A stretch of DNA of 64,000 nucleotides from Candidatus Kapaibacterium sp. Its GTDB lineage: Bacteria > Bacteroidota > Ignavibacteria > Kapaibacteriales > UBA2268. Location: assembly GCA_963664875.1 (NCBI GenBank), contig OY761611.1, forward strand, positions 1,344,001 to 1,408,000, written 5' to 3'. The notes beneath the pieces were generated by a model, which worked only from the letters and a program-made list of their open reading frames with translations, ran no database searches and was not told the DNA's origin. This document shows, one piece after another, positions 33,377 to 50,707 of this stretch. Position 1 is the stretch's first letter; each line of letters begins with the position of its first letter. The position numbers were made by a program, and so were the translations under genes.

Positions 33377-34360
33377 ATGTGTGATAAAAGACTTACGCAA
33401 TTAATATTGTACTCGAGAGACGTTCTACCGAATCAATACCCACCATCATATATTGGCAAGATGGTCAAATGTGTAGAAGATTTGCTAATACCTTTTGAAG
33501 ACACTGATAAAATAAATATAATAGTCGATGCTATATATACAATAGATGCAAAATTAAAACCGATGGATTACTTGACGGAAATTTTTGTCGAACAAGAAGA
33601 AGGCCCATATAAAAGAATCGATGAATTTGCTTATGTAAAAGCAAAATTGTTTTTATTGGAAAAACTTAAAAAGATAAAAGGTGAAAAAAACACATTTTGT
33701 AATTTTGAAAAATACGAACCGTTTTCTGAATACCCTGAGGAATTTAGATTTTCAGAAGATTTGATAAAAAATGAAATTGAATTTTTTTCTGAAGAAGAGA
33801 CTCTTGAATATTTAACAGATAAAATAAAGACACTATGGGGAATTGTAAATTTCCATCCAAATATAGATGAGACAGTTTTTGATGAGACTTTGAAAAAAAC
33901 ATATCATTTTAACTCACACACAAAATGCTCTGACATCGTTGCAAGATATTCGAAACTTCAAGAATCTGCTGCTTCAACGCTTCTGTATTTAGAGAAAGAG
34001 TATGCCTTAAGTAATAATCAAATAAAATTTCAAACCAATAATACACTTTCTAATACACGACAAGAAATAAGAAACTCTGCTTATTATACAATAGTAGAAG
34101 ATAAAATAAAATGGGAGAAACCTTTAAACCTGCTTTCAGTGTATTTATGCGAAATCGCAAAAGAAATACCTGAAATGAAAGGACTCCAAGGTAAAGCTGT
34201 TATAACATACTTTGTTGAACGATCCAAATTAATCCTAACTGAAAAAAATATTTCGTCACTAAAGACATACGCAAAAGATTACTTGAATAATACACATGAT
34301 TTCAACGATGAGCTTGATAACAAAGTAAAAGTTAACTTAAAAAATTGTCTACTATCATAA
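33377..34360 (+). CDS. Hypothetical protein upstream of the replication module
   Basis: 327-aa ORF followed by a GAGGGAAT/ATTCCCTC hairpin. Confidence 0.7.
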   Translation: MCDKRLTQLILYSRDVLPNQYPPSYIGKMVKCVEDLLIPFEDTDKINIIVDAIYTIDAKLKPMDYLTEIFVEQEEGPYKRIDEFAYVKAKLFLLEKLKKIKGEKNTFCNFEKYEPFSEYPEEFRFSEDLIKNEIEFFSEEETLEYLTDKIKTLWGIVNFHPNIDETVFDETLKKTYHFNSHTKCSDIVARYSKLQESAASTLLYLEKEYALSNNQIKFQTNNTLSNTRQEIRNSAYYTIVEDKIKWEKPLNLLSVYLCEIAKEIPEMKGLQGKAVITYFVERSKLILTEKNISSLKTYAKDYLNNTHDFNDELDNKVKVNLKNCLLS

Positions 34361-34514
34361 TCTCAGAGGGAATTTTTATTCCCTCTCATTTCTTTTTACT
34401 CTGCAAAACGACGCGTATATCAGTCCGAAAAAAAAAATTTAATCGGTAATATCTATTCCCTTACAACTCATATACTTTGCCTCATATTTGAAAACAATTT
34501 TCAAGGAGGCTCAT

Positions 34515-34664
34515 ATGAGAGCTATATCTAAAAAGATGATATCATCAGTGCAAGATGTGGATGCTGTTGATATATTTCTGCATTTAACAAATCCTAATAA
34601 CAAATGGATTTTCAATTCTTTACCCAATCTTTTAGTACAGAGTAGGAGGCAGCATGGAAAATAA
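34515..34664 (+). CDS. Small ORF (49 aa) coupled to the primase gene
   Basis: AAGGAGG RBS, MRAISKKMISS...QHGK*; overlaps the primase start by 11 nt; below the ORF-track cutoff. Confidence 0.5.
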   Translation: MRAISKKMISSVQDVDAVDIFLHLTNPNNKWIFNSLPNLLVQSRRQHGK

Positions 34665-35601
34665 ATCTTTCAGTAGTAATAGGACTAGTTGTCCTGAATG
34701 CGGAGCAAAAAGGGCATTTGCAGAATATGATGATGGCTCAGGTGGATATTGTCATTCATGTGGTAAAACTGTTATGTATAACTCGACTAAAAAGCAAGGT
34801 AAGCAAATGAAAAAACAACAAGAGAAGAGTCAATTGTTACAAACTATTACTCTTGAGCAATTTAATGAGTTAAGATCATGTGATGATTCAAATTTTAACG
34901 AGTATTTTGGTGAGCTATTTGGTGATGCTTTTAACAAACATTGTAATGATAATTATTTTTTAAGAGCTGATGATTATGGTGCAACAATCTTTACTTTTAT
35001 AGATTCTCAGGGATTTATTAGAAATTTAAAAAGCATGGCATACAAACAAGATGGTCATAGAGATAAGGTGGGATTTGTTCTAAAAATCAAGGAGAAAGAG
35101 ACTACTATACCTGTATTTTATGGATATCGATATGCAAAAAAAGGAAAATACGATATGATTAAATCCACTTCTGTGAAGAAACATTATTCACAGTGCCTGT
35201 TTGGTGAATACTACCTCAATTCACACAACTACATGATTGTAGGAGATCGAACCTATAAGTATGATGACAAGACCCCAGTTATATTATTAGAATCAGAAAA
35301 ATCTGTCTTAATATCTTCATTTCATTATCCATCTGTCATCTTCCTTGCAACAGGTGGAACGAATGGGTTAACAGAAGAAAAAGCGGAAATATTGAAAGAT
35401 AGAATTGTTTATATCATGTTTGACAACGAAGAAAAAGCTCAACTGAGAGCTGAAAAGGCAAAGATTGTTTTGACAGGAATTGCAAAGTCGGTTGATATAA
35501 TTGATATTTTCAAAAATTACAAGGTTGAAGAAGGTTATGATTTAGCTGATATTTTAGAACAACAAGCAATTTTAAGAGGAGAACAGAAAGATGACAAATA
35601 A
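34654..35601 (+). CDS. Primase-like protein (Zn finger + TOPRIM/DUF6371-like)
   Basis: CPECG...CHSCG; QCLFGE, LESEKS, LATGG, FDNE and GYDLAD motifs. Confidence 0.8.
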   Translation: MENKSFSSNRTSCPECGAKRAFAEYDDGSGGYCHSCGKTVMYNSTKKQGKQMKKQQEKSQLLQTITLEQFNELRSCDDSNFNEYFGELFGDAFNKHCNDNYFLRADDYGATIFTFIDSQGFIRNLKSMAYKQDGHRDKVGFVLKIKEKETTIPVFYGYRYAKKGKYDMIKSTSVKKHYSQCLFGEYYLNSHNYMIVGDRTYKYDDKTPVILLESEKSVLISSFHYPSVIFLATGGTNGLTEEKAEILKDRIVYIMFDNEEKAQLRAEKAKIVLTGIAKSVDIIDIFKNYKVEEGYDLADILEQQAILRGEQKDDK

Positions 35602-36652
35602 TTTAAAACCGATAAGAGAATTCAATCTTATTCAAGAGTTGAATAACTATAATCACAAAAAGATTAAACAAAACACAATGAATTTTCGATTGGAACAAGC
35701 TGCTAATCAACCTCAGATGGAAGAATTATTTGGTTCTTATTTACAACGTGGAGAAATTTCAATAATCGCAGGTAACACAGGAGATGGTAAATCCACTTTA
35801 GCAGTTCAAATTGCTGACAGAATCACAAGGCAAAAAGGAATATGGAATGAAGTGAATACGCAAAAATATCCAATAATATACTATGATTTTGAGATGTCAG
35901 ACCAATCATTGCTAAAAAGATATCAATCTTATACTTTCGAATCTAACTTTTATTGTCCTGACGTTAGTGAAATTATTAAGAATTCAAATGGCGTATTTTC
36001 TATAGATACAATCAAGAATGATATCAACACTTTTGATGCTAATATAATCTTTATCGATAATATTACTGCAATGTCGCAAAAATCAACAATTGATCAAGAC
36101 TCTGCAAATAAACTAATGCGTGGATTAAAAACTCTACAAAGTACGTACAATACCACTATTTGTGTGTTAGCTCATGTGCCTAAAATTCCAAGTAATGTTC
36201 CTTTGCATATTAACCATGTCGCAGGGAGTAAAAATATTGTAAATTTTGCAGATAGTGTGCATATAATCGGACAGAGCAATCAATTACCTAATAGACGTTA
36301 TCTGAAGCAAGTTAAAAATCGTAATTCAGAAATGGAATCACAGGTAATGGTTATAGATTTAATCTGCGAAGATTATCTTCATTTTGATTTTATCAAGATG
36401 GATGATGAACGTAATCATATCGATGTTGATACGATTATGGAAGATAATAAGAAAAATAAACATATTGACATTGCTAATGAATTGATTGGTACTGATGCAA
36501 TAAAATACACTGATTTTGTAGATAATTACGCAAAAAAATACAATAAATCGATTGAAACGGGTAAGAAAGCAATTCAATATTTGAAGTTACACAATATAAT
36601 ACAGCAGAACGAATCGAAAGAATGGGAAGTCAATCCTGACTATCTAATTTAG
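35591..36652 (+). CDS. AAA_25/RepA-type replicative helicase
   Basis: Walker A GNTGDGKS, YYDFEM, Walker B IFIDNIT, LAH, AGSK...FADS and KNR motifs. Confidence 0.85.
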   Translation: MTNNLKPIREFNLIQELNNYNHKKIKQNTMNFRLEQAANQPQMEELFGSYLQRGEISIIAGNTGDGKSTLAVQIADRITRQKGIWNEVNTQKYPIIYYDFEMSDQSLLKRYQSYTFESNFYCPDVSEIIKNSNGVFSIDTIKNDINTFDANIIFIDNITAMSQKSTIDQDSANKLMRGLKTLQSTYNTTICVLAHVPKIPSNVPLHINHVAGSKNIVNFADSVHIIGQSNQLPNRRYLKQVKNRNSEMESQVMVIDLICEDYLHFDFIKMDDERNHIDVDTIMEDNKKNKHIDIANELIGTDAIKYTDFVDNYAKKYNKSIETGKKAIQYLKLHNIIQQNESKEWEVNPDYLI

Positions 36653-37029
36653 TGTAATTAGTGTAAAAACAATTAGTGTACTTTTACACTTTACACTTTA
36701 CACTTACATCTTTCTTTGGGTGAGCTTTTAAGGGCTCACCCTTATTTTTGATTTTAATCGTAAGAAAAAAAAGAAATTTTCTAAACTATTTAAACAACAC
36801 AGTTTACTTCAATTGATTTATATCCTTATTATATCAAGAAGTTGATTTCTAAGAATACAAAGAATTCTTTTTTTATTTTTCGAAAATTATCTACCTAATT
36901 AAGTTTAGTAAGCTTCTTTTAGTTCTAAATATTCTTTTCTTTTATTTTGACAAATAACAAACCTGTTGCAATTGCAACTATAGTGTAAAGTGTAAAAGTA
37001 CACTATTTATTTTTACATCTTTTACACTA
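36651..37029. other. Putative replication origin with TTTACAC/GTGTAAA iterons
   Basis: Perfect 24-bp inverted repeat at 36674-36697 and 36982-37005 built from iterons, flanking an AT-rich core, immediately after the helicase. Confidence 0.7.
36718..36750 (+). terminator. Terminator after primase-helicase
   Basis: GGGTGAGC/GCTCACCC stem followed by TTATTTTT. Confidence 0.7.
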
Positions 37030-37395
37030 ACTCCGAAATCCAAAATCTATTTGCAAAACATACAGTCGTATGAGTCGTAATATTATAATAAGGAAGTATT
37101 TTTGAAATGGTAAATATTGAAGAAATCTATATAATTGGGTGCTCTGACGGGTGACTGGGGAAACAAAAAAAGGTAGAACCTTTACTAGCTCTACCGTTTC
37201 ATTGATACCGAGTACAGAAGGAGGGTGATTAGAATCAAAATGTATCGGATGATTTAACACATTCTTTTTTTGTTTTTCGCTTCCTCTCACAACTGAAAAG
37301 TCAAGAATTCTAAATACTCACTATGCCATCTTCAAATATTTTCGCCCGTTATCTTCAATAATCTGATTTTTCATTATTTGTATCTTTTTCGGAGA

Positions 37396-37489
37396 AGTAA
37401 GCCAATAATTTTTACAAAAATACAAAATTTATGTTTTTTTCTCTTCTGCATTTGAAAGCAATCTTATGCAGGATTAGTTTAGCAAATGG
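37396..37489 (+). repeat. Imperfect direct repeat, left flank of the CRISPR-Cas module
   Basis: About 85% identical by eye to 50544-50635. Confidence 0.8.
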
Positions 37490-37690
37490 GGATCAATTTT
37501 AATCGAGAAAATTGGGTTATTTTTTGGAAAATTAAGATATGCAACCCTCAAGGCAGCAATATAAATATCTCATATATGGTTTCCAATTATCATATAATAC
37601 ATTTTTCGAAGGAGATAATCAGTTCTATATGAATTCTAACTTGAAAATAGTTCGTCAAGTTATCCGTTCGCTTTGTAAATCTCAAATCAA

Positions 37691-37760
37691 TTCCTCAATC
37701 AGTTAATTAGAGGTATAAATTAAAATATGTAACATTCACTACCTACAAGGGATGTGAAAT
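37691..37760 (+). ncRNA. Putative crRNA-like regulatory mini-array (CreR/CreA-like)
   Basis: Two degenerate repeats (ending GAGGTATAAAT and AGGGATGTGAAAT) flank TAAAATATGTAAC, which matches 37843-37855(-) at 12/13 next to CCA. Confidence 0.65.
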
Positions 37761-37864
37761 TCAAAAGAAATCAAAATTATATAAATTCTTTTTTTAAAAT
37801 AATATTTAGATTCTTGAATCGTAAAAAACAATAGCTAATAAAGTTACATTTTTTATGGTGCATC

Positions 37865-38593
37865 ATGAGAATAGTAGTAGAGTTAGAATCTTCTAATCAT
37901 ATTCTATTACCACATTCTATCAATAGTGTTATACAGTCTTTTTTATATAATGTAGTAAAAGGTGATTCTGAATTTGATGAGATGCACAAAAGTATCAGTT
38001 ATAAAAATTTTACGTTTTCAACGATTCGAGAACGATTCCGAAAAGTAGAAGGTGGAAGACTATATGGAAATTCTATATCTTTTGTCTTCTCAACCAACCA
38101 GCAAACATTAATAAATACATTACTGAACAGTATAATGTTCGCTTCAAATTTAGATTTAGCAGGCAATTCAGTAAGATTCAAATCTGTCTCACCAATTCAG
38201 AAGAAATCCTTTACTACAACCGAGAAAATGAAGACATTAAGTCCAATAACTGTCTACGATGATATTGTGAATTCCGAAGGTAAAAAGTTTAGGAGCTATT
38301 GTTTAGATGTGCATTCTGAAAGATTCACAAGATTACTTCGCAACAATCTGATAAGAAAAGCAAGTAAACTTTATAATTGGGATTTATCGGATTCTGAATT
38401 TGAGATTGAATGCTTATCAAACCCAAAAATTGTCTCTGCGACTTATAAGCATAAGAATAATGTGATTAAAGGCATCGATGCAATATTTAAGCTTACTGGT
38501 GATGAAAGATTGATTCAAGTTGCTTATGAAGTTGGCTTAGGCAGTAAAAATGCTCAGGGTTGGGGTTGTATAGAATTTGCAGGAGAAAAATAA
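37865..38593 (+). CDS. cas6: CRISPR endoribonuclease Cas6
   Basis: YKNFTFS, TLSPI and C-terminal Gly-rich loop GLGSKNAQGWG. Confidence 0.93.
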   Translation: MRIVVELESSNHILLPHSINSVIQSFLYNVVKGDSEFDEMHKSISYKNFTFSTIRERFRKVEGGRLYGNSISFVFSTNQQTLINTLLNSIMFASNLDLAGNSVRFKSVSPIQKKSFTTTEKMKTLSPITVYDDIVNSEGKKFRSYCLDVHSERFTRLLRNNLIRKASKLYNWDLSDSEFEIECLSNPKIVSATYKHKNNVIKGIDAIFKLTGDERLIQVAYEVGLGSKNAQGWGCIEFAGEK

Positions 38594-40467
38594 TGTTTTT
38601 AAATGCTTTATACGAAATTGGTGAATATCATAAAAAAAACATACTTAACAAAGGTGGTCTTCCTGAGCTCACTTTGAAAGAGGTACAATATCTTCATAAA
38701 ACAGGTACATATCAAAAGGTTGTAATTATGAATATACAAAGTTCCAATAGCACAGTATCCTTTTCAACCGAGGAATTAGAATCGACCGGAGATCACTCTC
38801 TACACTATTTATACAAATATCGTAATGGCTCCCAAGCAGGTAACGAATTTTCTTTTACTAACAAAATAAATATACAAAAAGAAAAGGATAAGAATAAAGA
38901 GAAAGCTGAAATCGATTGGAACAAATTCTTCAACTACTATAAAGCTAACAAAAATTCTTGGATTACTTGGTTAGAAGCTTGCATAGCTGAAGAATTTTAT
39001 CAAACAACTCAAAATATATTAAGAGCAATCATTCAAAATATTGAGAATATCAAATCTTATATTGAGACCTTATTTACGAATGATGATACTTTTAAAAAAG
39101 GCTGCATTTTTACGGTAAAATATAACGGTAAATATTTAAACGAAATCAAAGAGTGCGTTGAATGTTTTGACTATTGTGTGCAAAAACACAATAAGTCAGG
39201 AAACACAGAGCCAAATGTTTGCTGCTCTTTTTGCGGAAGTAACCAAAATGTCAGATATGGTATTCCAGAAGCATTCAAATTCGCAACCATAGATAAAGAA
39301 GGATTCGCAACTGACTTCAATGTTGACACAAATAGGGATTATCCAGTTTGTATCGAATGTCGTACAATCTTGACTTCAGGAAGACAATTTATTGATGATA
39401 ATTTGTCTTATTATTTCCACGGCTTAAAATATAAGGTTGTTCCACACTCTGTTTTTAAATCAGAAGTGTTGCTTGACAATATGTTATATAACTTAAAAGA
39501 AGCCAAAAATCCAAATTTATCTCAAAATCACTCTAATTTTATGTCTGATCCTGATGGTATCATTGAAGAAGCTTCTGAACTAAACAATAGTGTATTGTTA
39601 AATTTAGTGTTTTTATCACAGAAAGGCGTCGGTGGTGAACAAATTGATCTACTTATGCAAGATGTACTTCCAACTCGCTTAGCTGCGATAATAAAAGTAA
39701 AACATGATTTAGAAAATATGTACCCCTATAAAACGAAAGATGGTGAAATTAAACATATGCTTTTCAATATGGGCACAATCTTCAATTTTTACCAACATAA
39801 GAAAAGTAAAAATGCACCATTTGATAAATCATTTTTCGAACTTGTGGAAGCTATATTTAAAGGTGGTAAACTTAATAAAGATTTGATTGTCTCTAAGTTC
39901 ATGGATAAAATTCGGGAAGATGTTTATGAACCAGACAAAAAGCACCCCCATAACTACACTAAAGATTCCATAAGAATAATGCAATTCCTATCAAAATTAG
40001 ATATAGTAGATTTCAAATATAAAGGTAAACCTATGAAAGACAATATTTTCAAAGAATATTTTGAGCAAATAGGCATAGTCGATTCTTCATACTTAGCGGG
40101 CGTAATGCTTATCGGAGCCTTAGTAACCAAAGTTCGTATAGTACAGAAAGAAAATCTGGACAATGATCCCTTCAAGAAAAATCTAAAAGGATACAATTTA
40201 AACCGTGATGAGATTATTTTGCTTGCTAATAAAGTAAAAGCGAAGTTAGAAGAGTATAATGCTTTTAAAGGAACTGAAAATATAATTTTTGGAACTGCTT
40301 TTAAGCTTATGATGGATGCAACTCCAGTATCAAATGCCATGTCAAACTGGTATCTGATTGGTGGCATGAGTTTAGAATATGAAATTATGGGCATAGCAAT
40401 CGAATACCTAAAATCGCAAAAACCAAACTCTCAAGCAGAAGAACAAGAAAGCAATGAATCCAATTAA
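38593..40467 (+). CDS. cas8b: Type I-B Cascade large subunit Cas8b (Csh1-like)
   Basis: Start MFLNALYEIG coupled to the cas6 stop; CSFC...FKFATIDKEGF...YPVCIEC Zn motif; lies between cas6 and cas7. Confidence 0.85.
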   Translation: MFLNALYEIGEYHKKNILNKGGLPELTLKEVQYLHKTGTYQKVVIMNIQSSNSTVSFSTEELESTGDHSLHYLYKYRNGSQAGNEFSFTNKINIQKEKDKNKEKAEIDWNKFFNYYKANKNSWITWLEACIAEEFYQTTQNILRAIIQNIENIKSYIETLFTNDDTFKKGCIFTVKYNGKYLNEIKECVECFDYCVQKHNKSGNTEPNVCCSFCGSNQNVRYGIPEAFKFATIDKEGFATDFNVDTNRDYPVCIECRTILTSGRQFIDDNLSYYFHGLKYKVVPHSVFKSEVLLDNMLYNLKEAKNPNLSQNHSNFMSDPDGIIEEASELNNSVLLNLVFLSQKGVGGEQIDLLMQDVLPTRLAAIIKVKHDLENMYPYKTKDGEIKHMLFNMGTIFNFYQHKKSKNAPFDKSFFELVEAIFKGGKLNKDLIVSKFMDKIREDVYEPDKKHPHNYTKDSIRIMQFLSKLDIVDFKYKGKPMKDNIFKEYFEQIGIVDSSYLAGVMLIGALVTKVRIVQKENLDNDPFKKNLKGYNLNRDEIILLANKVKAKLEEYNAFKGTENIIFGTAFKLMMDATPVSNAMSNWYLIGGMSLEYEIMGIAIEYLKSQKPNSQAEEQESNESN

Positions 40468-40485
40468 TAAAGTATAGGCAATAAC

Positions 40486-41439
40486 ATGAGTAATATTAAA
40501 TCTTCAGAAATCATATTTTTATATGACTTAGAAAAATGCAATCCAAATGGTGATCCAATAGCCAACAACTTACCAAGAATAGATGAAGAAACATCAAAAG
40601 TTTATGCAACCGATGTTTTTCTTAAGCATCATATAAGAGAGTACATGTATCAGAATACAATTCCGAAATTAGATGGTAATTTTGACATCTGGGTCAGAGA
40701 TACAAGAGAAGAAAATGGTGGGAAAGTAGTTGATGCAAAGAAGAGATATGAAAGTCTTAATATAAGTGCAAAAGATGATAAAGCTAAAGAAGAATTCTTA
40801 GAAAGATGCCTAGATGCACAAATGTTCGGTGCAGTAGTACCACTAAAAAAGGAAAACTATCATTTAACTGGAGCTTGGCAGTTTATGAATATCAAATCTT
40901 TACATCAAGTAGATGTAATTACAGATAAAGGTATTACTACTTTTGCTTCAGGTGATAATAAATCTCAAGGAACTTTCAGAGAAGATCACTACGTGAATTA
41001 TGCTTTGATGCAATCATATAGCAGAGTAAATGCAAATGCTGCCGAGAAAAATCTATTAAAACAAGAAACTTTAGATGCTGGTTTAGAAGCTATGTGGTAT
41101 GGAATCAAAAATTTAAATACACGTAGTAAATTGGGTCATGATTCTAAGTTACTTTTAGTTGTAGAATACAAAACAAACAATCGTTTTATTGGAAACAAAC
41201 TTAACAATTCCATAACTCTCACACTTAAGGATGGTGTAATCACAGAGAAAGGTATCAGAGCAGGTTCTGATTATAACCTTAATATGGATGCTTTACAAAA
41301 TCTATTAGTATCGAATAAATCTATTATCCACAAAATTAAATTTCACTACGAAGCTCATGATCCTCACGTTTCTTCATTTAAGGATTTTAAAGCTAATTTA
41401 CAAAAAGAAGGTATAGAGATTGAAGATTTAAAATACTAA
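40486..41439 (+). CDS. cas7: Type I-B Cas7 (Csh2)
   Basis: NPNGDP...LPRIDEET...TDVFLKHHIREY, FGAV and TRSKLG motifs. Confidence 0.93.
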   Translation: MSNIKSSEIIFLYDLEKCNPNGDPIANNLPRIDEETSKVYATDVFLKHHIREYMYQNTIPKLDGNFDIWVRDTREENGGKVVDAKKRYESLNISAKDDKAKEEFLERCLDAQMFGAVVPLKKENYHLTGAWQFMNIKSLHQVDVITDKGITTFASGDNKSQGTFREDHYVNYALMQSYSRVNANAAEKNLLKQETLDAGLEAMWYGIKNLNTRSKLGHDSKLLLVVEYKTNNRFIGNKLNNSITLTLKDGVITEKGIRAGSDYNLNMDALQNLLVSNKSIIHKIKFHYEAHDPHVSSFKDFKANLQKEGIEIEDLKY

Positions 41440-41448
41440 GGTGAAAAA

Positions 41449-42156
41449 ATGAAAGTTCTCATTTTCGAAATAAGTGGTGAGTTTGCACATTTCAAACCTT
41501 ATGATACAACTTCAACCAAGCTAAGTTACCCATTCCCAACTCCACCAACTGTTTTAGGAATGATTGGTGCCATTTTAGGTTTGTCAAAGCAAGATCAGCA
41601 GTATCTAAAAATATTGAACGATGCTAATACTAAAGTAGCTGTTTCAATTTTGAACCCAGTCAAAAAGTTACATTGGGGCTTAAATCTTCTAAATACAAAA
41701 GGTAACATTGTTGACTTATCTAACGGTCATACTCAAGTATTGACCGAGTTTATTAAAGATGCTCGTTATAGAATTATTGTGTCAATGGAAAAGCAAGATT
41801 TATATAATTCTCTCAAAGAAAGATTAGAAAAGAAAGAGTCTTATTATGATCTGTGCTTGGGTATCACAGAATGTTTAGCTGACTTTGAATTTGTAGGAGA
41901 ATACGAAGCAAGTCTGAACAAATATAATTCTATCGAAGTAGATTCTGTTATACCCATAGACGAATCAATCGAAAACAAGATAGACTTTACATCAGTACAA
42001 GAAAAAATAACAATGCCAAGAATACCATATAAAATGGAAGTAGGAAGAATTGCATCTTATAGGAATGTACTTGTGAACGAAGGAGCCAAACCAATAGCAA
42101 TAAAAAATATAGAATGTTATACGACTGATGTTTGCAATTTCTTGTTTTTGAATTGA
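41449..42156 (+). CDS. cas5: Type I-B Cas5
   Basis: FEISGEFAHFK...LSYPFPTPPTVLGMIGAILG. Confidence 0.93.
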   Translation: MKVLIFEISGEFAHFKPYDTTSTKLSYPFPTPPTVLGMIGAILGLSKQDQQYLKILNDANTKVAVSILNPVKKLHWGLNLLNTKGNIVDLSNGHTQVLTEFIKDARYRIIVSMEKQDLYNSLKERLEKKESYYDLCLGITECLADFEFVGEYEASLNKYNSIEVDSVIPIDESIENKIDFTSVQEKITMPRIPYKMEVGRIASYRNVLVNEGAKPIAIKNIECYTTDVCNFLFLN

Positions 42157-42157
42157 T

Positions 42158-44494
42158 ATGATTATGTTACTATCTCATCCAGACACTATATTATCAGACC
42201 ACCTCGAAGGAGTGCTGCTCAATTCTGTTCGTATGTACGAAGAAATGAATATCACTTCTTCATATGGTGTTGATTATTTAAAAGTTGTAAAGTTGGTAGC
42301 TTTGTTTCACGATTTCGGGAAGTGTACTAATTATTTCCAAAATTATATTCGTGGAGATAAAAGTGGAAGTTCTCTTTTAAGACAACATTCCATATTAAGT
42401 GCTATTGTAGTTTCACATTTAGTTATATCAGTTGTTGAAAGTAAACATGCAGAAGAACTTTCACTTTATGCTTTTCTCTCAGTATTGTATCATCATGGTA
42501 ATCTTAATAACTTATATAATAAATTGCTTGGAATCAATAGCAATGATACAATTGTATTACTCAGCCAACAAATAAATGCAGTATCCTTTGATTCAGTAAA
42601 CGAATGCTATAATCCACTGCTCAAAGATTACTTATCTATTGATATCACTTTTACGGCTGAAAAGCTGACAGAATATATTGATACTCTAAAATCTTCAATA
42701 CGTAAACTCAACAAAACTTTAAGGAAAATAAAAGAAACAAACTCTTTTGAATCTTATCTGCATTTGATGACATTCTGGTCTTTACTTGTTGATGCAGATA
42801 AAAAACATGCAAACTTCAAAGAGGTATTGCAAAAGCATTCGTCTAAAATTGATACAGATGCTGCTAAAAAGTACATTATGAAATTTCCAAAAGACGAATC
42901 ACCGATGTGTAAACTTAGAACAGAAGCTTTTGAGACAGTTGAACAGAATATTCTAAAATCATCAGACAAAGCTGATATTTTTAGCGTAGAATTGCCTACC
43001 GGAGCAGGAAAGACACTAAACGTTTTGAATGCAGCACTTCGATTGAGAAATAAAAGGTATGATGAAACCGGGAAGTACAAAAAAATTATAAACGGTCTGC
43101 CGTTTTTATCAATCATTGATCAAACAGCAAAAGTCTATAGAGACGTATTTGATTTAGATGACAGCAATTCAGATGTTATGACTGTTCAGCACTCTTTGGC
43201 TGACTATTCCTTATTCAAACAGGGGGATGTCGAATATAAAGATGATTCCAGAGCGGAGATGCTAATCGAAACATGGGAATCTGAGATAATAGTTACCACA
43301 TTTGTGCAAATATTCCATACCTTGTTTACCAATAAAAACGGCAATGCAAGGAAATTCCATACAATATCCAATTCAATTTTAGTATTAGATGAGGTTCAAG
43401 CTATTCCTTCTAAATATCATAAACTTGTAAATGAGATGTTTCAAGCTTTAGTTAAAGTTTACAACACTGATATTATTACAATGACTGCTACTAATATTTA
43501 CGAGTTCGATAATGCAAAACGTTTATGTGATGCTACATTTTATAATGACTTAGATAGAATTGTTTTGAAATATTTTGATGATGTACTAACAGTCGAAGAA
43601 TTCTTTCAAAAGCTTGATTTGCAGGCAGACAAATCTTATATGTTTGTTATGAATACAATCAAAAGTGCTAAAATACTGCACCAATTGCTGTCTGATTCAC
43701 TACAGGAAGAAGTTGCCTTCTTATCGACAGAGATTATTCCATTTCAGAGATTAGGTATCATATCTGATATTAAGAATAAAAAATATAGATTTTTGGTTAC
43801 AACGCAACTTATCGAAGCTGGAGTAGATGTTACATTTGATGTTGTCTATCGTGATATGACCAGAATGGATTCAATTGTGCAAACAGCAGGCAGATGTAAT
43901 AGGCATTACACAGATAAACAAGGAGAAGTAAATGTTATTAAGCTGAAAGACAAAAGAAAAGAGTATGCAGAGTATATTTATGATTCAATGGACTTATTCC
44001 AAACATCTGAAACGCTTAAAACATATCTTGATGGACAGAACATGATTCGAGAATCTAATTTTTACAATCTAATAAAAGACTTTAGTGCAAAACTACAGGC
44101 AAAAACAACAGATTCAAATGCTTATATTGAAGCAGTAAATCAGTTAAAATTTATCAACTCACAGGAAGACAAATATAATATTGCAACATTCAAACTGATA
44201 GATAATTCTGATTATGAGAAAATAGATGTGTTTGTAGAGTATAATCAGGAAGCCGTTGATATTTGGCAAAAGTATATGCAAATCAAGAAAATTGAAAATA
44301 GATTTGACAGGAAACTACAGTTTAAGCTTATTAAAAATATCTTCCAGAAGTATGTGATTAGCGTTTCAAAGCAAAGATATTGTACGGATTCAAATGCAGA
44401 TGGATTATATTATATACCGCAAGGGCAATTAGAATTTTCATATGGGAAGGTCGGTTTCATGGGATTTGGGCTTGAAGCAAATAATATAATTTAG
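42158..44494 (+). CDS. cas3: Cas3 HD nuclease-helicase
   Basis: HDFGK and HHG HD motifs, LPTGAGKT, DEVQ, MTAT and QTAGRCNR. Confidence 0.95.
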   Translation: MIMLLSHPDTILSDHLEGVLLNSVRMYEEMNITSSYGVDYLKVVKLVALFHDFGKCTNYFQNYIRGDKSGSSLLRQHSILSAIVVSHLVISVVESKHAEELSLYAFLSVLYHHGNLNNLYNKLLGINSNDTIVLLSQQINAVSFDSVNECYNPLLKDYLSIDITFTAEKLTEYIDTLKSSIRKLNKTLRKIKETNSFESYLHLMTFWSLLVDADKKHANFKEVLQKHSSKIDTDAAKKYIMKFPKDESPMCKLRTEAFETVEQNILKSSDKADIFSVELPTGAGKTLNVLNAALRLRNKRYDETGKYKKIINGLPFLSIIDQTAKVYRDVFDLDDSNSDVMTVQHSLADYSLFKQGDVEYKDDSRAEMLIETWESEIIVTTFVQIFHTLFTNKNGNARKFHTISNSILVLDEVQAIPSKYHKLVNEMFQALVKVYNTDIITMTATNIYEFDNAKRLCDATFYNDLDRIVLKYFDDVLTVEEFFQKLDLQADKSYMFVMNTIKSAKILHQLLSDSLQEEVAFLSTEIIPFQRLGIISDIKNKKYRFLVTTQLIEAGVDVTFDVVYRDMTRMDSIVQTAGRCNRHYTDKQGEVNVIKLKDKRKEYAEYIYDSMDLFQTSETLKTYLDGQNMIRESNFYNLIKDFSAKLQAKTTDSNAYIEAVNQLKFINSQEDKYNIATFKLIDNSDYEKIDVFVEYNQEAVDIWQKYMQIKKIENRFDRKLQFKLIKNIFQKYVISVSKQRYCTDSNADGLYYIPQGQLEFSYGKVGFMGFGLEANNII

Positions 44495-44620
44495 TCGTCT
44501 GGCTCGTATAATACAAAAATCACTGAACCTCGACGACTTATTTATTGGAGTTTGAGATACTTTTCTAATGCTACGAACGATACGATTTATTAAAATAGCT
44601 TGTTCTTTGAAAATTTGAGG
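44493..44620 (+). promoter_or_regulatory. CRISPR leader
   Basis: AT-rich non-coding region between cas3 and the first repeat; AGTCGTC...GACGACT inverted motif (44493-44538) of the kind seen in I-B leaders. Confidence 0.75.
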
Positions 44621-45244
44621 ATAGAAATACCTGCTATAAGCAGGGATGATTTGTCAGATTGTTCGCCTCTGATGCTGTTAGCTGTATAGAAATACCTGCT
44701 ATAAGCAGGGATGATGGTATATCACGAGTTGGTACACCACCATCGTAGGTATAGAAATACCTGCTATAAGCAGGGATGATGATGCAGTTGATATTGATAT
44801 TGAACCGACAGAGCAAATAGAAATACCTGCTATAAGCAGGGATGATATAGTGGTTTATAACAATGGTGAAAAAGTTACTTTTGAATAGAAATACCTGCTA
44901 TAAGCAGGGATGATTCAATTCTTTCTGGTCTATCTAATCCGAATAATTCTATAGAAATACCTGCTATAAGCAGGGATGATATGTTCTTTATGTACTTCAT
45001 TCCACTTGGAAAGTTCATAGAAATACCTGCTATAAGCAGGGATGATGGATTAAACAAAGCTCTAAAATCGCAAGGTCGTTCAATAGAAATACCTGCTATA
45101 AGCAGGGATGATTTTTCTAATTCTCCTATATAAAAAAAGCGGTCTGTATAGAAATACCTGCTATAAGCAGGGATGATTTAAGTAAGCATACATACTAAGG
45201 CAACCTGCTTCTTGATAGAAATACCTGCTATAAGCAGGGATGAT
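44621..45244 (+). CRISPR. CRISPR block 1: 10 chimeric repeats ATAGAAATACCTGCTATAAGCAGGGATGAT, 9 spacers (35-38 bp)
   Basis: Repeats at 44621, 44686, 44751, 44817, 44885, 44951, 45017, 45083, 45148 and 45215; the last 10 nt equal the IS left end. Confidence 0.97.
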
Positions 45245-46426
45245 TTGTTCTTTGTAAATATCATATAATATAGTAAATTATAGAAAGCCAAACACAAACT
45301 TTTCTAATCTGGGGGGATTTATGGAAAAGCAAACGTTAGTAAATTATCTTGATAAGTTGACAGATAAGCGTCGCAGGGAAGGCACACGCCATAATCAATC
45401 ATTTGTATTATTGCTGGTTTTGATGGCGACTATGAGCGGACAATATGGCTATCGTGGCATAGAAAGATTTATAAAGAAGAATGCCGAAGACATACTGAAA
45501 TATTTAAAGCCTCATAAAGATAGATTACCAACTTACGCAACAATTTTTAGAGTGGTAAATAATATAGATTTTGATGAATTTGCACAGATTTTTAAAGAGT
45601 GGTCAAAAGTTTATGCAAAGCCTCAAAGCGGTGAAATAATCAGTATAGATGGCAAAGCTTTGAAAGGCACATTAGTAGAATACAATTCGAAATACCAGAA
45701 CTTTATAAGCATTGTTTCTGCACATTCTCAATCAAGTAAAATGTCACTAAGTATAAGCAAATATGAGAATAAAAAATCAAGCGAGATAAGCGTAGTTGAA
45801 GAAATGATTAGAGATTTAGAACTGACTGGCGTAGTCTTTACAATGGATGCTTTACACTGTCAAAAAAACTCTAAGAACAATTGTTAGTACTAACAACAAC
45901 TATATTATTTGCGTAAAAAAGAATCAAGGTCGTTTGTACAAAGAACTGGAGAGTTTGAGTTCGAGCTGGTCAACAAAGATCGATTATTATAAAACCGAAG
46001 AAACTAATAGAGACAGACGAGAAACTCGTAAAGTATATGTATATTCATTAAACGATAAAATTAAGAACGAGTGGTCCGGATCACAGCAATTAGTAAAGGT
46101 ACAAAGGATTAGAAAAACAAAACAAATGCAGGAAGTTCATGTACATTATTATTTGAGCAGTCAAGAAAAACCAGCAAAGTATTATATGCAGAGCATACGA
46201 GGACATTGGGGCATTGAAAACCAGCTACATTGGGTAAAGGATGTGGTAATGAAAGAAGATGCTTGGAAAGTGAGAAATACACAAGCAGCTTCAGTCATGA
46301 GTATAATAAAGTCAATTTGTATCAATATTTTTAGGTCAAAGAAGCGTATTGATTGTACCAACTTTTTCTATGAGACTGCCGACAATGTAGAACTATTGGT
46401 GACTTTGTTAGAATGAATCAACCCTG
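45235..46426 (+). mobile_element. ISAs1-family insertion sequence, copy 1 (1192 bp)
   Basis: Terminal IRs CAGGGATGATTTGTTCT and AGAATGAATCAACCCTG (14/17); 10-bp TSD CTGCTATAAG at 45225-45234 and 46427-46436. Confidence 0.95.
45321..46416 (+). CDS. ISAs1 transposase split into two frames at an A7 run
   Basis: ORFs 45321-45887 (IDGKALKG, TMDALHCQK) and 45847-46416 (VKKNQ, RGHWGIENQLHWVKDV). Confidence 0.9.
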
Positions 46427-46965
46427 CTGCTATAAGGGGTTTAAACTAAAAGGCAATAAGCTGTATTTGACGTTAGGACTTGATAGAAATACCTGCTATA
46501 AGGGGTTTAAACTTTGGTAATGATGCTAAGAGCTGCAGCACATCACTAATAGAAATACCTGCTATAAGGGGTTTAAACGAAGGCAGCCATGATGACATGG
46601 TAGATGCGACAACAATAGAAATACCTGCTATAAGGGGTTTAAACTTATTTCACCTCTGTGATAAAATTTTCAGCACTAAGATAGAAATACCTGCTATAAG
46701 GGGTTTAAACAATTCTAATGAATATTCTTTAGCTGTTTCCCGTGCAAATAGAAATACCTGCTATAAGGGGTTTAAACGAAATTAAAGAAAAAAAACTATT
46801 AGATTTTGCTGAATAGAAATACCTGCTATAAGGGGTTTAAACTAGACTTCAACTGAGACATAAACTGAGAAATATTAAATAGAAATACCTGCTATAAGGG
46901 GTTTAAACCATTCATTAAAAACTTACAATAAAAAAGCATGGAAAAATAGAAATACCTGCTATAAG
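46427..46965 (+). CRISPR. CRISPR block 2: canonical repeat ATAGAAATACCTGCTATAAGGGGTTTAAAC, 7 full and 2 partial repeats, 8 spacers
   Basis: Full repeats at 46483, 46549, 46615, 46681, 46748, 46813 and 46879. Confidence 0.97.
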
Positions 46966-48157
46966 CAGGGATGATTTGTTCTTTGTAAATATCATATAAT
47001 ATAGTAAATTATAGAAAGCCAAACACAAACTTTTCTAATCTGGGGGGATTTATGGAAAAGCAAACGTTAGTAAATTATCTTGATAAGTTGACAGATAAGC
47101 GTCGCAGGGAAGGCACACGCCATAATCAATCATTTGTATTATTGCTGGTTTTGATGGCGACTATGAGCGGACAATATGGCTATCGTGGCATAGAAAGATT
47201 TATAAAGAAGAATGCCGAAGACATACTGAAATATTTAAAGCCTCATAAAGATAGATTACCAACTTACGCAACAATTTTTAGAGTGGTAAATAATATAGAT
47301 TTTGATGAATTTGCACAGATTTTTAAAGAGTGGTCAAAAGTTTATGCAAAGCCTCAAAGCGGTGAAATAATCAGTATAGATGGCAAAGCTTTGAAAGGCA
47401 CATTAGTAGAATACAATTCGAAATACCAGAACTTTATAAGCATTGTTTCTGCACATTCTCAATCAAGTAAAATGTCACTAAGTATAAGCAAATATGAGAA
47501 TAAAAAATCAAGCGAGATAAGCGTAGTTGAAGAAATGATTAGAGATTTAGAACTGACTGGCGTAGTCTTTACAATGGATGCTTTACACTGTCAAAAAAAC
47601 TCTAAGAACAATTGTTAGTACTAACAACAACTATATTATTTGCGTAAAAAAGAATCAAGGTCGTTTGTACAAAGAACTGGAGAGTTTGAGTTCGAGCTGG
47701 TCAACAAAGATCGATTATTATAAAACCGAAGAAACTAATAGAGACAGACGAGAAACTCGTAAAGTATATGTATATTCATTAAACGATAAAATTAAGAACG
47801 AGTGGTCCGGATCACAGCAATTAGTAAAGGTACAAAGGATTAGAAAAACAAAACAAATGCAGGAAGTTCATGTACATTATTATTTGAGCAGTCAAGAAAA
47901 ACCAGCAAAGTATTATATGCAGAGCATACGAGGACATTGGGGCATTGAAAACCAGCTACATTGGGTAAAGGATGTGGTAATGAAAGAAGATGCTTGGAAA
48001 GTGAGAAATACACAAGCAGCTTCAGTCATGAGTATAATAAAGTCAATTTGTATCAATATTTTTAGGTCAAAGAAGCGTATTGATTGTACCAACTTTTTCT
48101 ATGAGACTGCCGACAATGTAGAACTATTGGTGACTTTGTTAGAATGAATCAACCCTG
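46966..48157 (+). mobile_element. ISAs1-family insertion sequence, copy 2 (1192 bp, apparently identical to copy 1)
   Basis: Same IRs and length, identical translated ORFs; TSD CTGCTATAAG at 46956-46965 and 48158-48167. Confidence 0.95.
47052..48147 (+). CDS. ISAs1 transposase split into two frames at an A7 run
   Basis: ORFs 47052-47618 and 47578-48147, identical to copy 1. Confidence 0.9.
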
Positions 48158-50490
48158 CTGCTATAAGGGGTTTAAACTTGAGATATTATTGTAAAATTGT
48201 GATTATTTGATTTCATAGAAATACCTGCTATAAGGGGTTTAAACGAGTGCAAAGTGTTCCATTCTTGTCGAGCCATACGGAATAGAAATACCTGCTATAA
48301 GGGGTTTAAACCTAATATATATTTTCATTATTCACTCCTAAATTGATAATAGAAATACCTGCTATAAGGGGTTTAAACACTACTGTGTTGAAAGATATGT
48401 TAAATGCCATATCAGATAGAAATACCTGCTATAAGGGGTTTAAACATATATTCAGTAAGAAGTTTTAAACAAGACCCATTAATAGAAATACCTGCTATAA
48501 GGGGTTTAAACTTTATAATGTCGTAATCTTTGTTAGCCTGAATGTTAATAGAAATACCTGCTATAAGGGGTTTAAACTCTGCTTCCTTATGTGATTTGCG
48601 GGTAGTACTACTATAGAAATACCTGCTATAAGGGGTTTAAACGCAAAGTTGTGCATTTTAGAAGCGACTGGCAACTCATAGAAATACCTGCTATAAGGGG
48701 TTTAAACTCGTTTTGATGCCGTTTACAACTGTGCCGATGCCTGCATAGAAATACCTGCTATAAGGGGTTTAAACGCAGCTGCAACCGGGTCATCGAGCGA
48801 TACATTGAATATAGAAATACCTGCTATAAGGGGTTTAAACATGCTTTTTGATATATTATTTGGCATTTGCAATTGAATAGAAATACCTGCTATAAGGGGT
48901 TTAAACAAGTTTGGAGTTTTCAATTTCATGTCTTCGAACAAATAGAAATACCTGCTATAAGGGGTTTAAACAAATTGATTTGAACGGCGTTGCATTCAGC
49001 ACGTCAAATAGAAATACCTGCTATAAGGGGTTTAAACACGTTTGCGGCTCTAATGCCTGCTTTTAAAAAGCTCAATAGAAATACCTGCTATAAGGGGTTT
49101 AAACGTAGATTATACTTCGGAGGAATCAGTAGAATTGATAATAGAAATACCTGCTATAAGGGGTTTAAACTTAACGAATTGGTCATTAACATAACCGATT
49201 GTTTGCGGATAGAAATACCTGCTATAAGGGGTTTAAACTGTTGAAGAGGAATGGAAGCATATTACTTGTCCTCGATAGAAATACCTGCTATAAGGGGTTT
49301 AAACGAATCAATCTCAATAAACAATATATTACTTTTAGTAATAGAAATACCTGCTATAAGGGGTTTAAACTGTTGAAGAGGAATGGAAGCATATTACTTG
49401 TCCTCGATAGAAATACCTGCTATAAGGGGTTTAAACAAAGCTGTGCCGGGGTTCGCTTAAATCTCTGATAAATAGAAATACCTGCTATAAGGGGTTTAAA
49501 CATCACTAATGAAGTCAGATTGAAGGTAGCTCGTTCGATAGAAATACCTGCTATAAGGGGTTTAAACTTGGCTGAACCGCTACGAGGCAATGGTATTGAT
49601 TTAATAGAAATACCTGCTATAAGGGGTTTAAACATGAATGCCGAGGCAGTAGAGGGGCGTGCAAGGCGTATAGAAATACCTGCTATAAGGGGTTTAAACG
49701 ACGTTCTGATATTAAGTCTTTGTCCAATCTGTACGAATAGAAATACCTGCTATAAGGGGTTTAAACAATATTGTTTTGTTAAAAGCTATCTCGAAAACTA
49801 TAATAGAAATACCTGCTATAAGGGGTTTAAACTCGTTTTTACCTGTTTTTTCTTTTGTTCCATTTTGATAGAAATACCTGCTATAAGGGGTTTAAACGTA
49901 ACTCCGTGCCAATCTCACTAAATATATTTGCATATAGAAATACCTGCTATAAGGGGTTTAAACTCAAAACTCTTAATCATATCAATACCGACTTCACTTA
50001 TAGAAATACCTGCTATAAGGGGTTTAAACCAATATTTCGAGCAGATACGAAACGATGCCGAGTTTATAGAAATACCTGCTATAAGGGGTTTAAACTTGTC
50101 AGCTATTGACAAAATGCTCAATGAAGCAGAATAGAAATACCTGCTATAAGGGGTTTAAACAATTCTGAAACATATTTTGCAATTTTTTTTAGTTTTATAG
50201 AAATACCTGCTATAAGGGGTTTAAACTTGACTACATTGTTTTCTTTACATATTCTAAATACCTATAGAAATACCTGCTATAAGTGGTTTAAACATCGAAA
50301 CTTACGGCAATGTAGCGACTGCTCTGAATATAGAAATACCTGCTATAAGGGGTTTAAACACAGTTAAAAGGTTTACTTGTCATGTGATAATAGAATAGAA
50401 ATACCTGCTATAAGGGGTTTAAATTGTGCTGACTGTATCGAATTTACGGTAGAAAATGAAATAGAAATACCTGCTATAAGGAGTTTAATT
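48158..50490 (+). CRISPR. CRISPR block 3: canonical repeat, 1 partial and 35 full repeats, 35 spacers, degenerate trailer end
   Basis: Repeats every ~65-68 bp from 48215 to 50461; variants at 50264, 50395 and 50461 mark the old end. Confidence 0.97.
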
Positions 50491-50543
50491 GAATATCGGT
50501 GGTGCAATTTATTAAGGAGAAAATACCACATTTATTTCAGTGC

Positions 50544-50635
50544 AGTAAGCCACTAATTTTGACAAAAATACAAAATTTATGTTTTTTATCTTCAGCATTT
50601 GTAGTCAATTTTATGCAAGACTAGTTAGCAAATGG
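50544..50635 (+). repeat. Imperfect direct repeat, right flank of the CRISPR-Cas module
   Basis: Matches 37396-37489. Confidence 0.8.
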
Positions 50636-50707
50636 AAGGTCAATTCTCGGAGGGAATTGTCAAAAGAATCAAGCACTATTGTTTTACTTCTGCTATTTTT
50701 TTAAATT

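Follow-up and report, generated by a model that had tools for sequence, protein, structure and literature searches.

A candidate CreR-type guide element with a very short spacer upstream of a type I-B cas operon in a Kapaibacterium-like genome

The DNA analysed here is a 64-kb window (G000:C1:1344001-1408000) of a Kapaibacterium-like genome that consists of a single contig of 3.83 Mb, and coordinates below refer to this window unless they carry the contig prefix. The window contains, on the + strand, a type I-B effector operon (37865-44494) in the order cas6-cas8b-cas7-cas5-cas3, recognised by Pfam and NCBIfam matches. The cas6 gene lies at 37865-38593 with its ATG at 37865, followed by cas8b of the TM1802/Csh1 family (38560-40467; TIGR02556, TIGR02591), cas7 (40486-41439), cas5 (41449-42156) and cas3 (42158-44494). 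Membership in type I-B is indicated by the families PF01881, PF09484, PF05107 and PF09704 together with the Cas3 domains, and a CRISPR array adjoins the operon. This array 1 (44621-50490, + strand), with the repeat ATAGAAATACCTGCTATAAGGGGTTTAAAC, is preceded by a 126-nt leader (44495-44620, + strand) that is 77% identical to the leader of the closest relative, and its leader end is placed next to cas3 because the repeats degenerate at the far end. Genes for cas1, cas2 and cas4 are absent from the operon at 37865-44494. The sole Cas1 of the genome is encoded 770 kb away, within a second type I system that has the gene order cas6, an unassigned gene, cas3, another unassigned gene, cas7, cas4, an I-B-type cas1 and cas2, and whose own array (array 2) comprises 269 repeats of a sequence that differs from that of array 1. 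An Rfam search of 36000-46000 returned nothing relevant.

Several repeated sequences surround this module. A 112-nt direct repeat (84% identical; 37387-37498 and 50535-50645) brackets the whole cas operon and array, two further copies of it are present in the congener G001, and many genomes of the family contain short stretches similar to one part of it (around 37402-37445); judging by these occurrences, it may be a promoter-like or recombination element. Further upstream, 51-nt inverted repeats with 86% complementarity (36650-36700 and 36979-37029) flank 278 nt, the element being located just downstream of a terminator-like hairpin at 36718-36741. The genes at 33377-36652 encode a DUF6371 protein and an AAA_25/DnaB-like ATPase, both typical of integrated mobile elements, and the CRISPR-cas module may lie beside or within an island.

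The feature of interest occupies non-coding DNA at 37691-37760, 105-174 nt upstream of the cas6 ATG, on the + strand. It begins with pseudo-repeat 1 (37691-37720), which carries a CCTC...GAGG stem and ends in AGAGGTATAAAT, identical at 9/12 positions to the end of the array repeat (AGGGGTTTAAAC), its last 8 nt (37713-37720) forming the candidate 5' handle GTATAAAT. A guide-like 13-nt spacer, TAAAATATGTAAC, follows directly (37721-37733), and then pseudo-repeat 2, ATTCACTACCTACAAGGGATGTGAAAT (37734-37760), with a TACCT...AAGGG core and an outer stem UUCAC/GUGAA. The predicted target lies on the - strand at 37843-37855, that is, 10-22 nt upstream of the cas6 ATG (-22 to -10), where the protospacer strand reads TAAAAAATGTAAC and matches the guide at 12/13 positions, the mismatch falling at guide position 6; the predicted PAM, CCA (37858-37856, - strand), is directly 5' of it. 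A first-pass annotation, made from the letters of the sequence, had described this feature as a hidden crRNA-like mini-array directed against the upstream region of its own cas operon, and everything that it had stated about the sequence (the pseudo-repeat ends, the 13-mer, the 12/13 target, the CCA and the distance to the ATG) was recovered exactly. Among the 13-mers of the intergenic region that directly follow a handle-like 8-mer, TAAAATATGTAAC alone has a near-perfect partner, the combination CCN+TAAAA.ATGTAAC (13-mer, position 6 free) occurs a single time in the whole genome, and among the seven CCN sites between -250 and +30 of the cas6 ATG just that of the target falls within -100 to +30. 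A promoter scan limited to sigma-70-type sites, whose output was no better than that from shuffled sequence, gave no + strand site near the element.

The relationship of the two pseudo-repeats to the array repeat was assessed by alignment, by folding and by a covariance model, and neither of them is detectably above chance as a relative of the repeat. Pseudo-repeat 1 is identical to the repeat at 15/30 ungapped positions and at 12/16 over the last 16 nt of the repeat. Its handle GTATAAAT agrees with GTTTAAAC at 6/8 positions (sites of this level number 11.7 per kb genome-wide) and at 7/8 with the variant GTTTAAAT, which is used by the closest relative and by one repeat of array 1. The gapped alignment scores of the pseudo-repeats were equalled by 26-41% of shuffles; for pseudo-repeat 1 the alignment scores were reached by 35-100% of shuffles, its full-length score by all of them, and for pseudo-repeat 2 the sequence score was reached by 10-26%. 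Under a scoring that takes composition into account, no site in the region matches the repeat better than pseudo-repeat 2, yet 10-16% of shuffles do equally well. A covariance model built from nine repeat variants of this genome and its closest relative, run with filters off at E<=10, listed ten sites in 36600-44640, and neither pseudo-repeat was among them. As for folding, the CCUC/GAGG hairpin of pseudo-repeat 1 has a z-score of -1.3, while pseudo-repeat 2 folds at -6.8 kcal/mol (z -2.09, with 9/200 shuffles equally good) into a two-tier hairpin as in the canonical repeat, but with different bases in the outer stem. With alignment scores at shuffle level and both pseudo-repeats missing from the covariance model's sites, the designation of the element as a mini-array is not demonstrable.

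The closest relative found is another assembly named 'Candidatus Kapaibacterium sp.' (G004), whose Cas6 is 86% identical. It was the one close homologue returned by a Cas6 search of 61 relatives, and a search of a genome contig collection gave only the same locus, while a metagenome contig collection contained no close relative of the locus. Among 5.8 billion proteins, 172 candidates included two Cas6 matches at E<=1e-20, one of which is a 152-aa C-terminal fragment without upstream DNA. At the DNA level the two loci are homologous from one base ahead of the cas6 ATG onwards, and nothing further upstream aligns; moreover, no arrangement of handle, seed and CCN was found upstream of cas6 in G004. 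Since this relative, the sole close one in the collections searched, has no equivalent of the element, the element is either young or not under selection.

The PAM of the genome could be derived from the spacers themselves, by searching for overlapping pairs among the 476 spacers of both arrays in this genome and in G004, where the flank of one spacer can be read from its partner. Three unambiguous overlaps (16/16, 19/21 and 25/29 matching) gave the 5' flanks CCT, CCT, CCA and CCA, and a 12/12 head-to-head overlap gave CCG and CCT, so that the read-outs are CCN in 6/6, all from array 2 spacers; in a control of 11 low-identity spacer pairings CCN appeared in none. The first-pass annotation had proposed that the finding of a PAM other than CCN would speak against its reading, and these overlaps, an indirect form of that check which draws on array 2, returned CCN throughout. 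Arrays 1 and 2 hold the same spacers in identical register five times (two pairs in this genome, two within G004 and one across the genomes). Given these shared spacers and the single Cas1 of the genome, CCN should also hold for acquisition into array 1, and one adaptation module seems to feed both arrays despite their differing repeats. We infer from these comparisons that the Cas8b of the operon reads CCN for binding. Two spacers of array 1 (50161-50196 and 50227-50263) recur in array 2, at G000:C1:2169571 and 2163632, with 35/36 and 34/36 matches.

Other sources of protospacers were searched as well. A query of 48160-50500 of array 1 (2,341 of about 5,900 bases) had no protospacer match in a phage collection, the only full matches within the own genome were spacers of the other array, and 41 related viral loci (478 kb) contained no full protospacer for any of the 476 spacers. 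Exact sub-spacer matching in IMG/VR left 4/5 without a match, and the one partial match there (22/36 nt, in a viral ATPase-like gene) has the flank TAA and not CCN. Of 20 weak in-register matches in genomes of the family the best (29/35) has CCA and the other 19 lack CCN; they were not counted for the PAM because 1/20 with CCN is about the base rate. A spacer of G004 (array 2, at 1994) with nine matches in this genome was likewise discarded, as its target is not a protospacer but a dispersed palindromic repeat, with the core TTCCCCTCTTGAGCG.

Taken singly, the components of the element are at chance level, and it is their combination that is rare. When the 574-nt intergenic region (37291-37864) was dinucleotide-shuffled 200 times, 46% of the shuffles contained a 13-mer inverted pair with at most one mismatch; by the same criterion the figure was 21.5% for dinucleotide shuffles of 37499-37864, and 9/12 matches to the repeat end occur at 0.59 per kb genome-wide. 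For the combinations, the p-values are optimistic, because the search criteria were partly set after the candidate had been seen: among 1000 shuffles, a handle of at least 6/8 directly followed by a 13-mer with a partner of at most one mismatch was found in 178, this arrangement with a target within 60 nt of the ATG in 19, the arrangement with a CCN flank in 3, and all of these together in none. In the real genome (3.83 Mb), 44,642 handle-like sites yield 484 with partners within 300 nt and 7 with CCN as well, the candidate being among them. Random AT-rich 13-mers found a CCN-flanked match at all 11 non-flipped positions, between -300 and +100 of either cas6 ATG, in 14 of 300,000 trials, which for the six handle-like sites of the region amounts to an expectation of about 3e-4. 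The annotation had judged the 12/13 match weak alone and had let register, PAM and position carry the argument, which hinges on CCN as the true PAM, something that the annotation had taken as given.

The same numbers bear on the main rival explanation, that a handle-like 8-mer, a 13-nt inverted match and a CCA co-occur without function in ordinary promoter DNA of 26% G+C, for which the probability is substantial, if short of even. In its favour, every component singly is at chance level, the covariance model misses both pseudo-repeats and the element is not conserved in G004. Moreover, the 13-mer has a direct copy with two mismatches at 37533, the region is rich in repeats (13 direct families and 92 inverted pairs in 1.25 kb), and 64 kb had been scanned for anything notable, a selection that inflates significance. 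Against coincidence, the combination is rare once the PAM, derived independently, is included, whether counted as none of the shuffles, as the seven configurations of the genome or as the expectation for the six handle-like sites; the prediction of CCN was open to failure and held.

CreR RNAs and regulatory mini-arrays, to which the element would belong if it is functional, are an established kind of regulator (10.1101/2023.03.10.532045, Liu et al.; PMC10120712, Shmakov et al.). According to the latter source, mini-arrays of type I-B lie upstream of cas6 and target a site, flanked by a canonical PAM, in the interval that separates them from the gene, and mini-array-type elements occur in about 19% of bacterial I-B loci; the arrangement put forward in the first-pass annotation had therefore already been described (PMC10120712), and the idea is not novel. 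The element shares with CreR RNAs and mini-arrays a degenerate repeat-spacer-repeat-like unit within a cas locus, a guide that matches over the PAM-proximal part only (12/13 at -22 to -10 of cas6, for a criterion of about 11-15 nt), a canonical PAM and a target in the putative promoter region of the effector operon. Its position upstream of cas6, with the target between element and gene, is that of the I-B mini-arrays, and its mismatch falls at the sixth position, where mismatches are reported for mini-array guides in the available text of both studies (PMC10120712; 10.1101/2023.03.10.532045).

On the other hand, the upstream repeat of published mini-arrays is, in the portion of the source consulted, usually 'highly similar' to the array repeat and was found by a 16-bp BLASTN threshold (PMC10120712), whereas pseudo-repeat 1 is far more degenerate and has no 16-bp match to the array repeat. 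The element's spacer of 13 nt is also shorter than the usual 20-60 bp given there (PMC10120712). In addition, unlike CreR RNAs and mini-arrays, the element is not conserved in the nearest relative and sits in a locus without adaptation genes of its own; its host is Kapaibacterium-like, a lineage that the portions of the CreR and mini-array literature compared here do not mention.

Another related system is the haloarchaeal I-B CreTA, in which, as far as the text available describes it, the CreA RNA guides Cascade to a promoter by a seed of approximately 11 nt and also represses the cas8 promoter (10.1101/2023.03.10.532045). The element proposed here would likewise be a crRNA-like RNA that directs I-B Cascade to a promoter by a short seed, although CreTA is located between cas6 and cas8 and the element upstream of cas6; no toxin gene was recognised beside the target when 37761-37864 was read by eye. 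As regards the length of the guide, excerpts of the literature on shortened spacers report that 14-nt spacers in the E. coli type I-E system assemble small Cascades which recognise targets without interference (PMC5159557), and that in type I-F regulatory crRNA-like RNAs the spacers are shortened, to medians of 19 and 25 nt, the median for viral Cracr RNAs being 19 nt (10.1101/2024.10.29.618823); the present 13 nt lie below both medians. A shortened guide, an effector with fewer backbone subunits and binding without normal interference would be common to those complexes and to the one proposed here, but those guides are engineered or viral and belong to types I-E and I-F, while the present one would be host-encoded and of type I-B. 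A natural host-encoded type I-B guide of 13 nt is not described in the portions of the literature compared. A further parallel is tracr-L of Streptococcus pyogenes, reportedly characterised by Workman et al. in 2021, a natural guide of short complementarity that is said to repress the promoter of its own cas operon; tracr-L differs in serving a type II single-protein effector and in having no repeat-derived mini-array.

A CreR-type guide fits the locus by its register, PAM and position, a combination that is rare, and the probability that the element is a CreR-type autorepressor, encoded as a degenerate and very short regulatory crRNA gene, appears to us evenly balanced. This estimate weighs the sizeable prior for type I-B loci, the PAM prediction, which held, and the rarity of the combination against undetectable repeats, the extreme length of the spacer and non-conservation. 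The autorepression by Cascade that had been put forward initially thus keeps the part that rests on register, PAM and position, while the repeats of its mini-array are at chance level and the element is absent from G004.

Transcription, processing, loading and repression by the element can be proposed from the sequence as follows. The region upstream of cas6 would be transcribed on the + strand, and Cas6 would cut at both hairpin-bearing pseudo-repeats, releasing an RNA of roughly 40 nt made up of the 8-nt handle GUAUAAAU, the 13-nt guide and a 3' hairpin. This RNA would nucleate a small Cascade with fewer Cas7 subunits, in which Cas8b would read the CCA PAM at 37858-37856 and the guide would pair with + strand bases 37843-37855, the mismatch at position 6 being tolerated since this would be a flipped-out base. 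The R-loop would be too short to license Cas3, so that the complex would only occupy the DNA 7-22 nt before the cas6 ATG and, while bound, would lower transcription of cas6-cas8b-cas7-cas5-cas3. Array 1 would be the source of competing crRNAs; as these would compete for the same proteins, and as anti-CRISPRs would disable those proteins, repression would relax when more Cascade is needed. If this is true, CreR-type autorepression of Cas proteins would extend to a little-studied Kapaibacterium-like lineage, and the guide would be the shortest natural one so far, with non-cleavage secured by the length of the guide and not by partial mismatch. If, on the contrary, the arrangement is a coincidence, it serves as a warning that AT-rich DNA often yields handle-like and seed-like matches, for which a PAM derived independently, conservation or RNA data are needed.

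Two further explanations have a low probability. The element could be a relic, either a decayed repeat-spacer-repeat fragment or an ectopic spacer integration, that is no longer expressed or loaded and whose match is without regulatory consequence today. The strong degeneration of the pseudo-repeats would agree with such an origin, as would a rearranged locus, the module being bracketed by the 112-nt direct repeats and carrying IS copies, and ectopic repeat-like sequences are reported, in the text available of the survey, to be common and short-lived (PMC10120712). A relic is nevertheless improbable: on that reading nothing accounts for a spacer match to a CCN-flanked site lying 123 nt further downstream, immediately ahead of cas6, and the folding of pseudo-repeat 2 is kept through different outer-stem bases. 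Least probable is a role of the 13-nt inverted repeat apart from Cascade, as operator half-sites for a DNA-binding regulator or in a long-range RNA pairing within a long cas6 5' leader that would mask the start region, since, although the motif TAARAWATGYAAC occurs eight times in the genome and three times within a 330-bp stretch (37533, 37721 and 37843), these three copies themselves served to define it, a rough calculation from the pair rate indicates that such triples are not unusual in AT-rich DNA, the long-range pairing is absent from the predicted fold of 37685-37880, whose stability is shuffle-like (z -0.68), and the handle and the PAM are left unexplained. The three-copy motif, together with a similarity between two stretches termed unit A and unit B, was discarded as evidence; in its left part, unit A is a piece of the conserved 112-nt element, found twice in G001.

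A second candidate guide was found in the other type I system of the genome. There, an exact 29-nt direct repeat with a period of 65 nt, which is a CRISPR period, forms a candidate two-repeat mini-array (G000:C1:2148462 and 2148527, to 2148600) that is unique in the genome and lies about 600-690 nt upstream of the cas6 gene of that system; its repeat ends in ATTGAAAA, identical at 7/8 positions to the handle of that system. The guide after the second repeat copy, TTTACTACATTGTA, matches the cas6 of the window at positions 1-11, 13 and 14, with a mismatch at position 12, so that the second predicted target falls inside this gene (protospacer 37959-37946, PAM CCT at 37962-37960, - strand). Of 200,000 random AT-rich guides, 53 matched equally well at some site of the two cas loci. 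An all-against-all scan of both cas loci gave 27 pairs of guide and CCN-flanked target, only two of which have a handle of at least 6/8, namely the guide at 37721 and this second guide, and both have targets in the first 100 nt around the start of the window's cas6, on the same strand. The second mini-array has no counterpart in G004.

Cross-regulation between the two CRISPR-Cas systems is therefore possible on these matches. In an extended form of the proposal, which we regard as unlikely, two guides would converge on the 5' end of the operon: the 13-nt guide in cis would assemble a minimal Cascade, unable to cleave, at the start region of cas6, while the other guide would act in trans from the second system, which is adaptation-competent, and this complete system would hold the orphan effectors in reserve and release them once its own Cascade is titrated or an anti-CRISPR blocks it. 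Such an arrangement, if true, would amount to a hierarchical back-up switch linking two co-resident CRISPR-Cas systems with a common spacer-acquisition machine, and the genome would offer a compact test case in which two type I systems with a single Cas1-Cas2-Cas4 module divide labour and regulate each other.

Array 1 shows further features that deserve description. An IS element of the DDE_Tnp_1_assoc family is inserted in a CRISPR repeat twice (45235-46426 and 46966-48157), its usual insertion site being a palindrome of the same kind as the dispersed repeat with the core TTCCCCTCTTGAGCG. The ten leader-proximal repeats (44621-45244) are hybrids that consist of 20 nt of the repeat and the first 10 nt of the IS end (CAGGGATGAT); it therefore seems that, as spacers were acquired after the IS insertion, the stretch copied was 30 bp counted from the leader side, and the hybrid repeats resemble a naturally preserved trace of ruler-based repeat duplication. 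In folding, the hybrid repeat is far more stable than the normal repeat. A reading of pseudo-repeat 2 as a copy of this hybrid repeat, suggested by the shared AGGGATG, was dropped as over-reading. Additionally, the same 36-nt spacer is present twice in array 1 (49239-49274 and 49371-49406), with one other spacer between the copies, and array 2 and G004 likewise contain several exact spacer duplicates.
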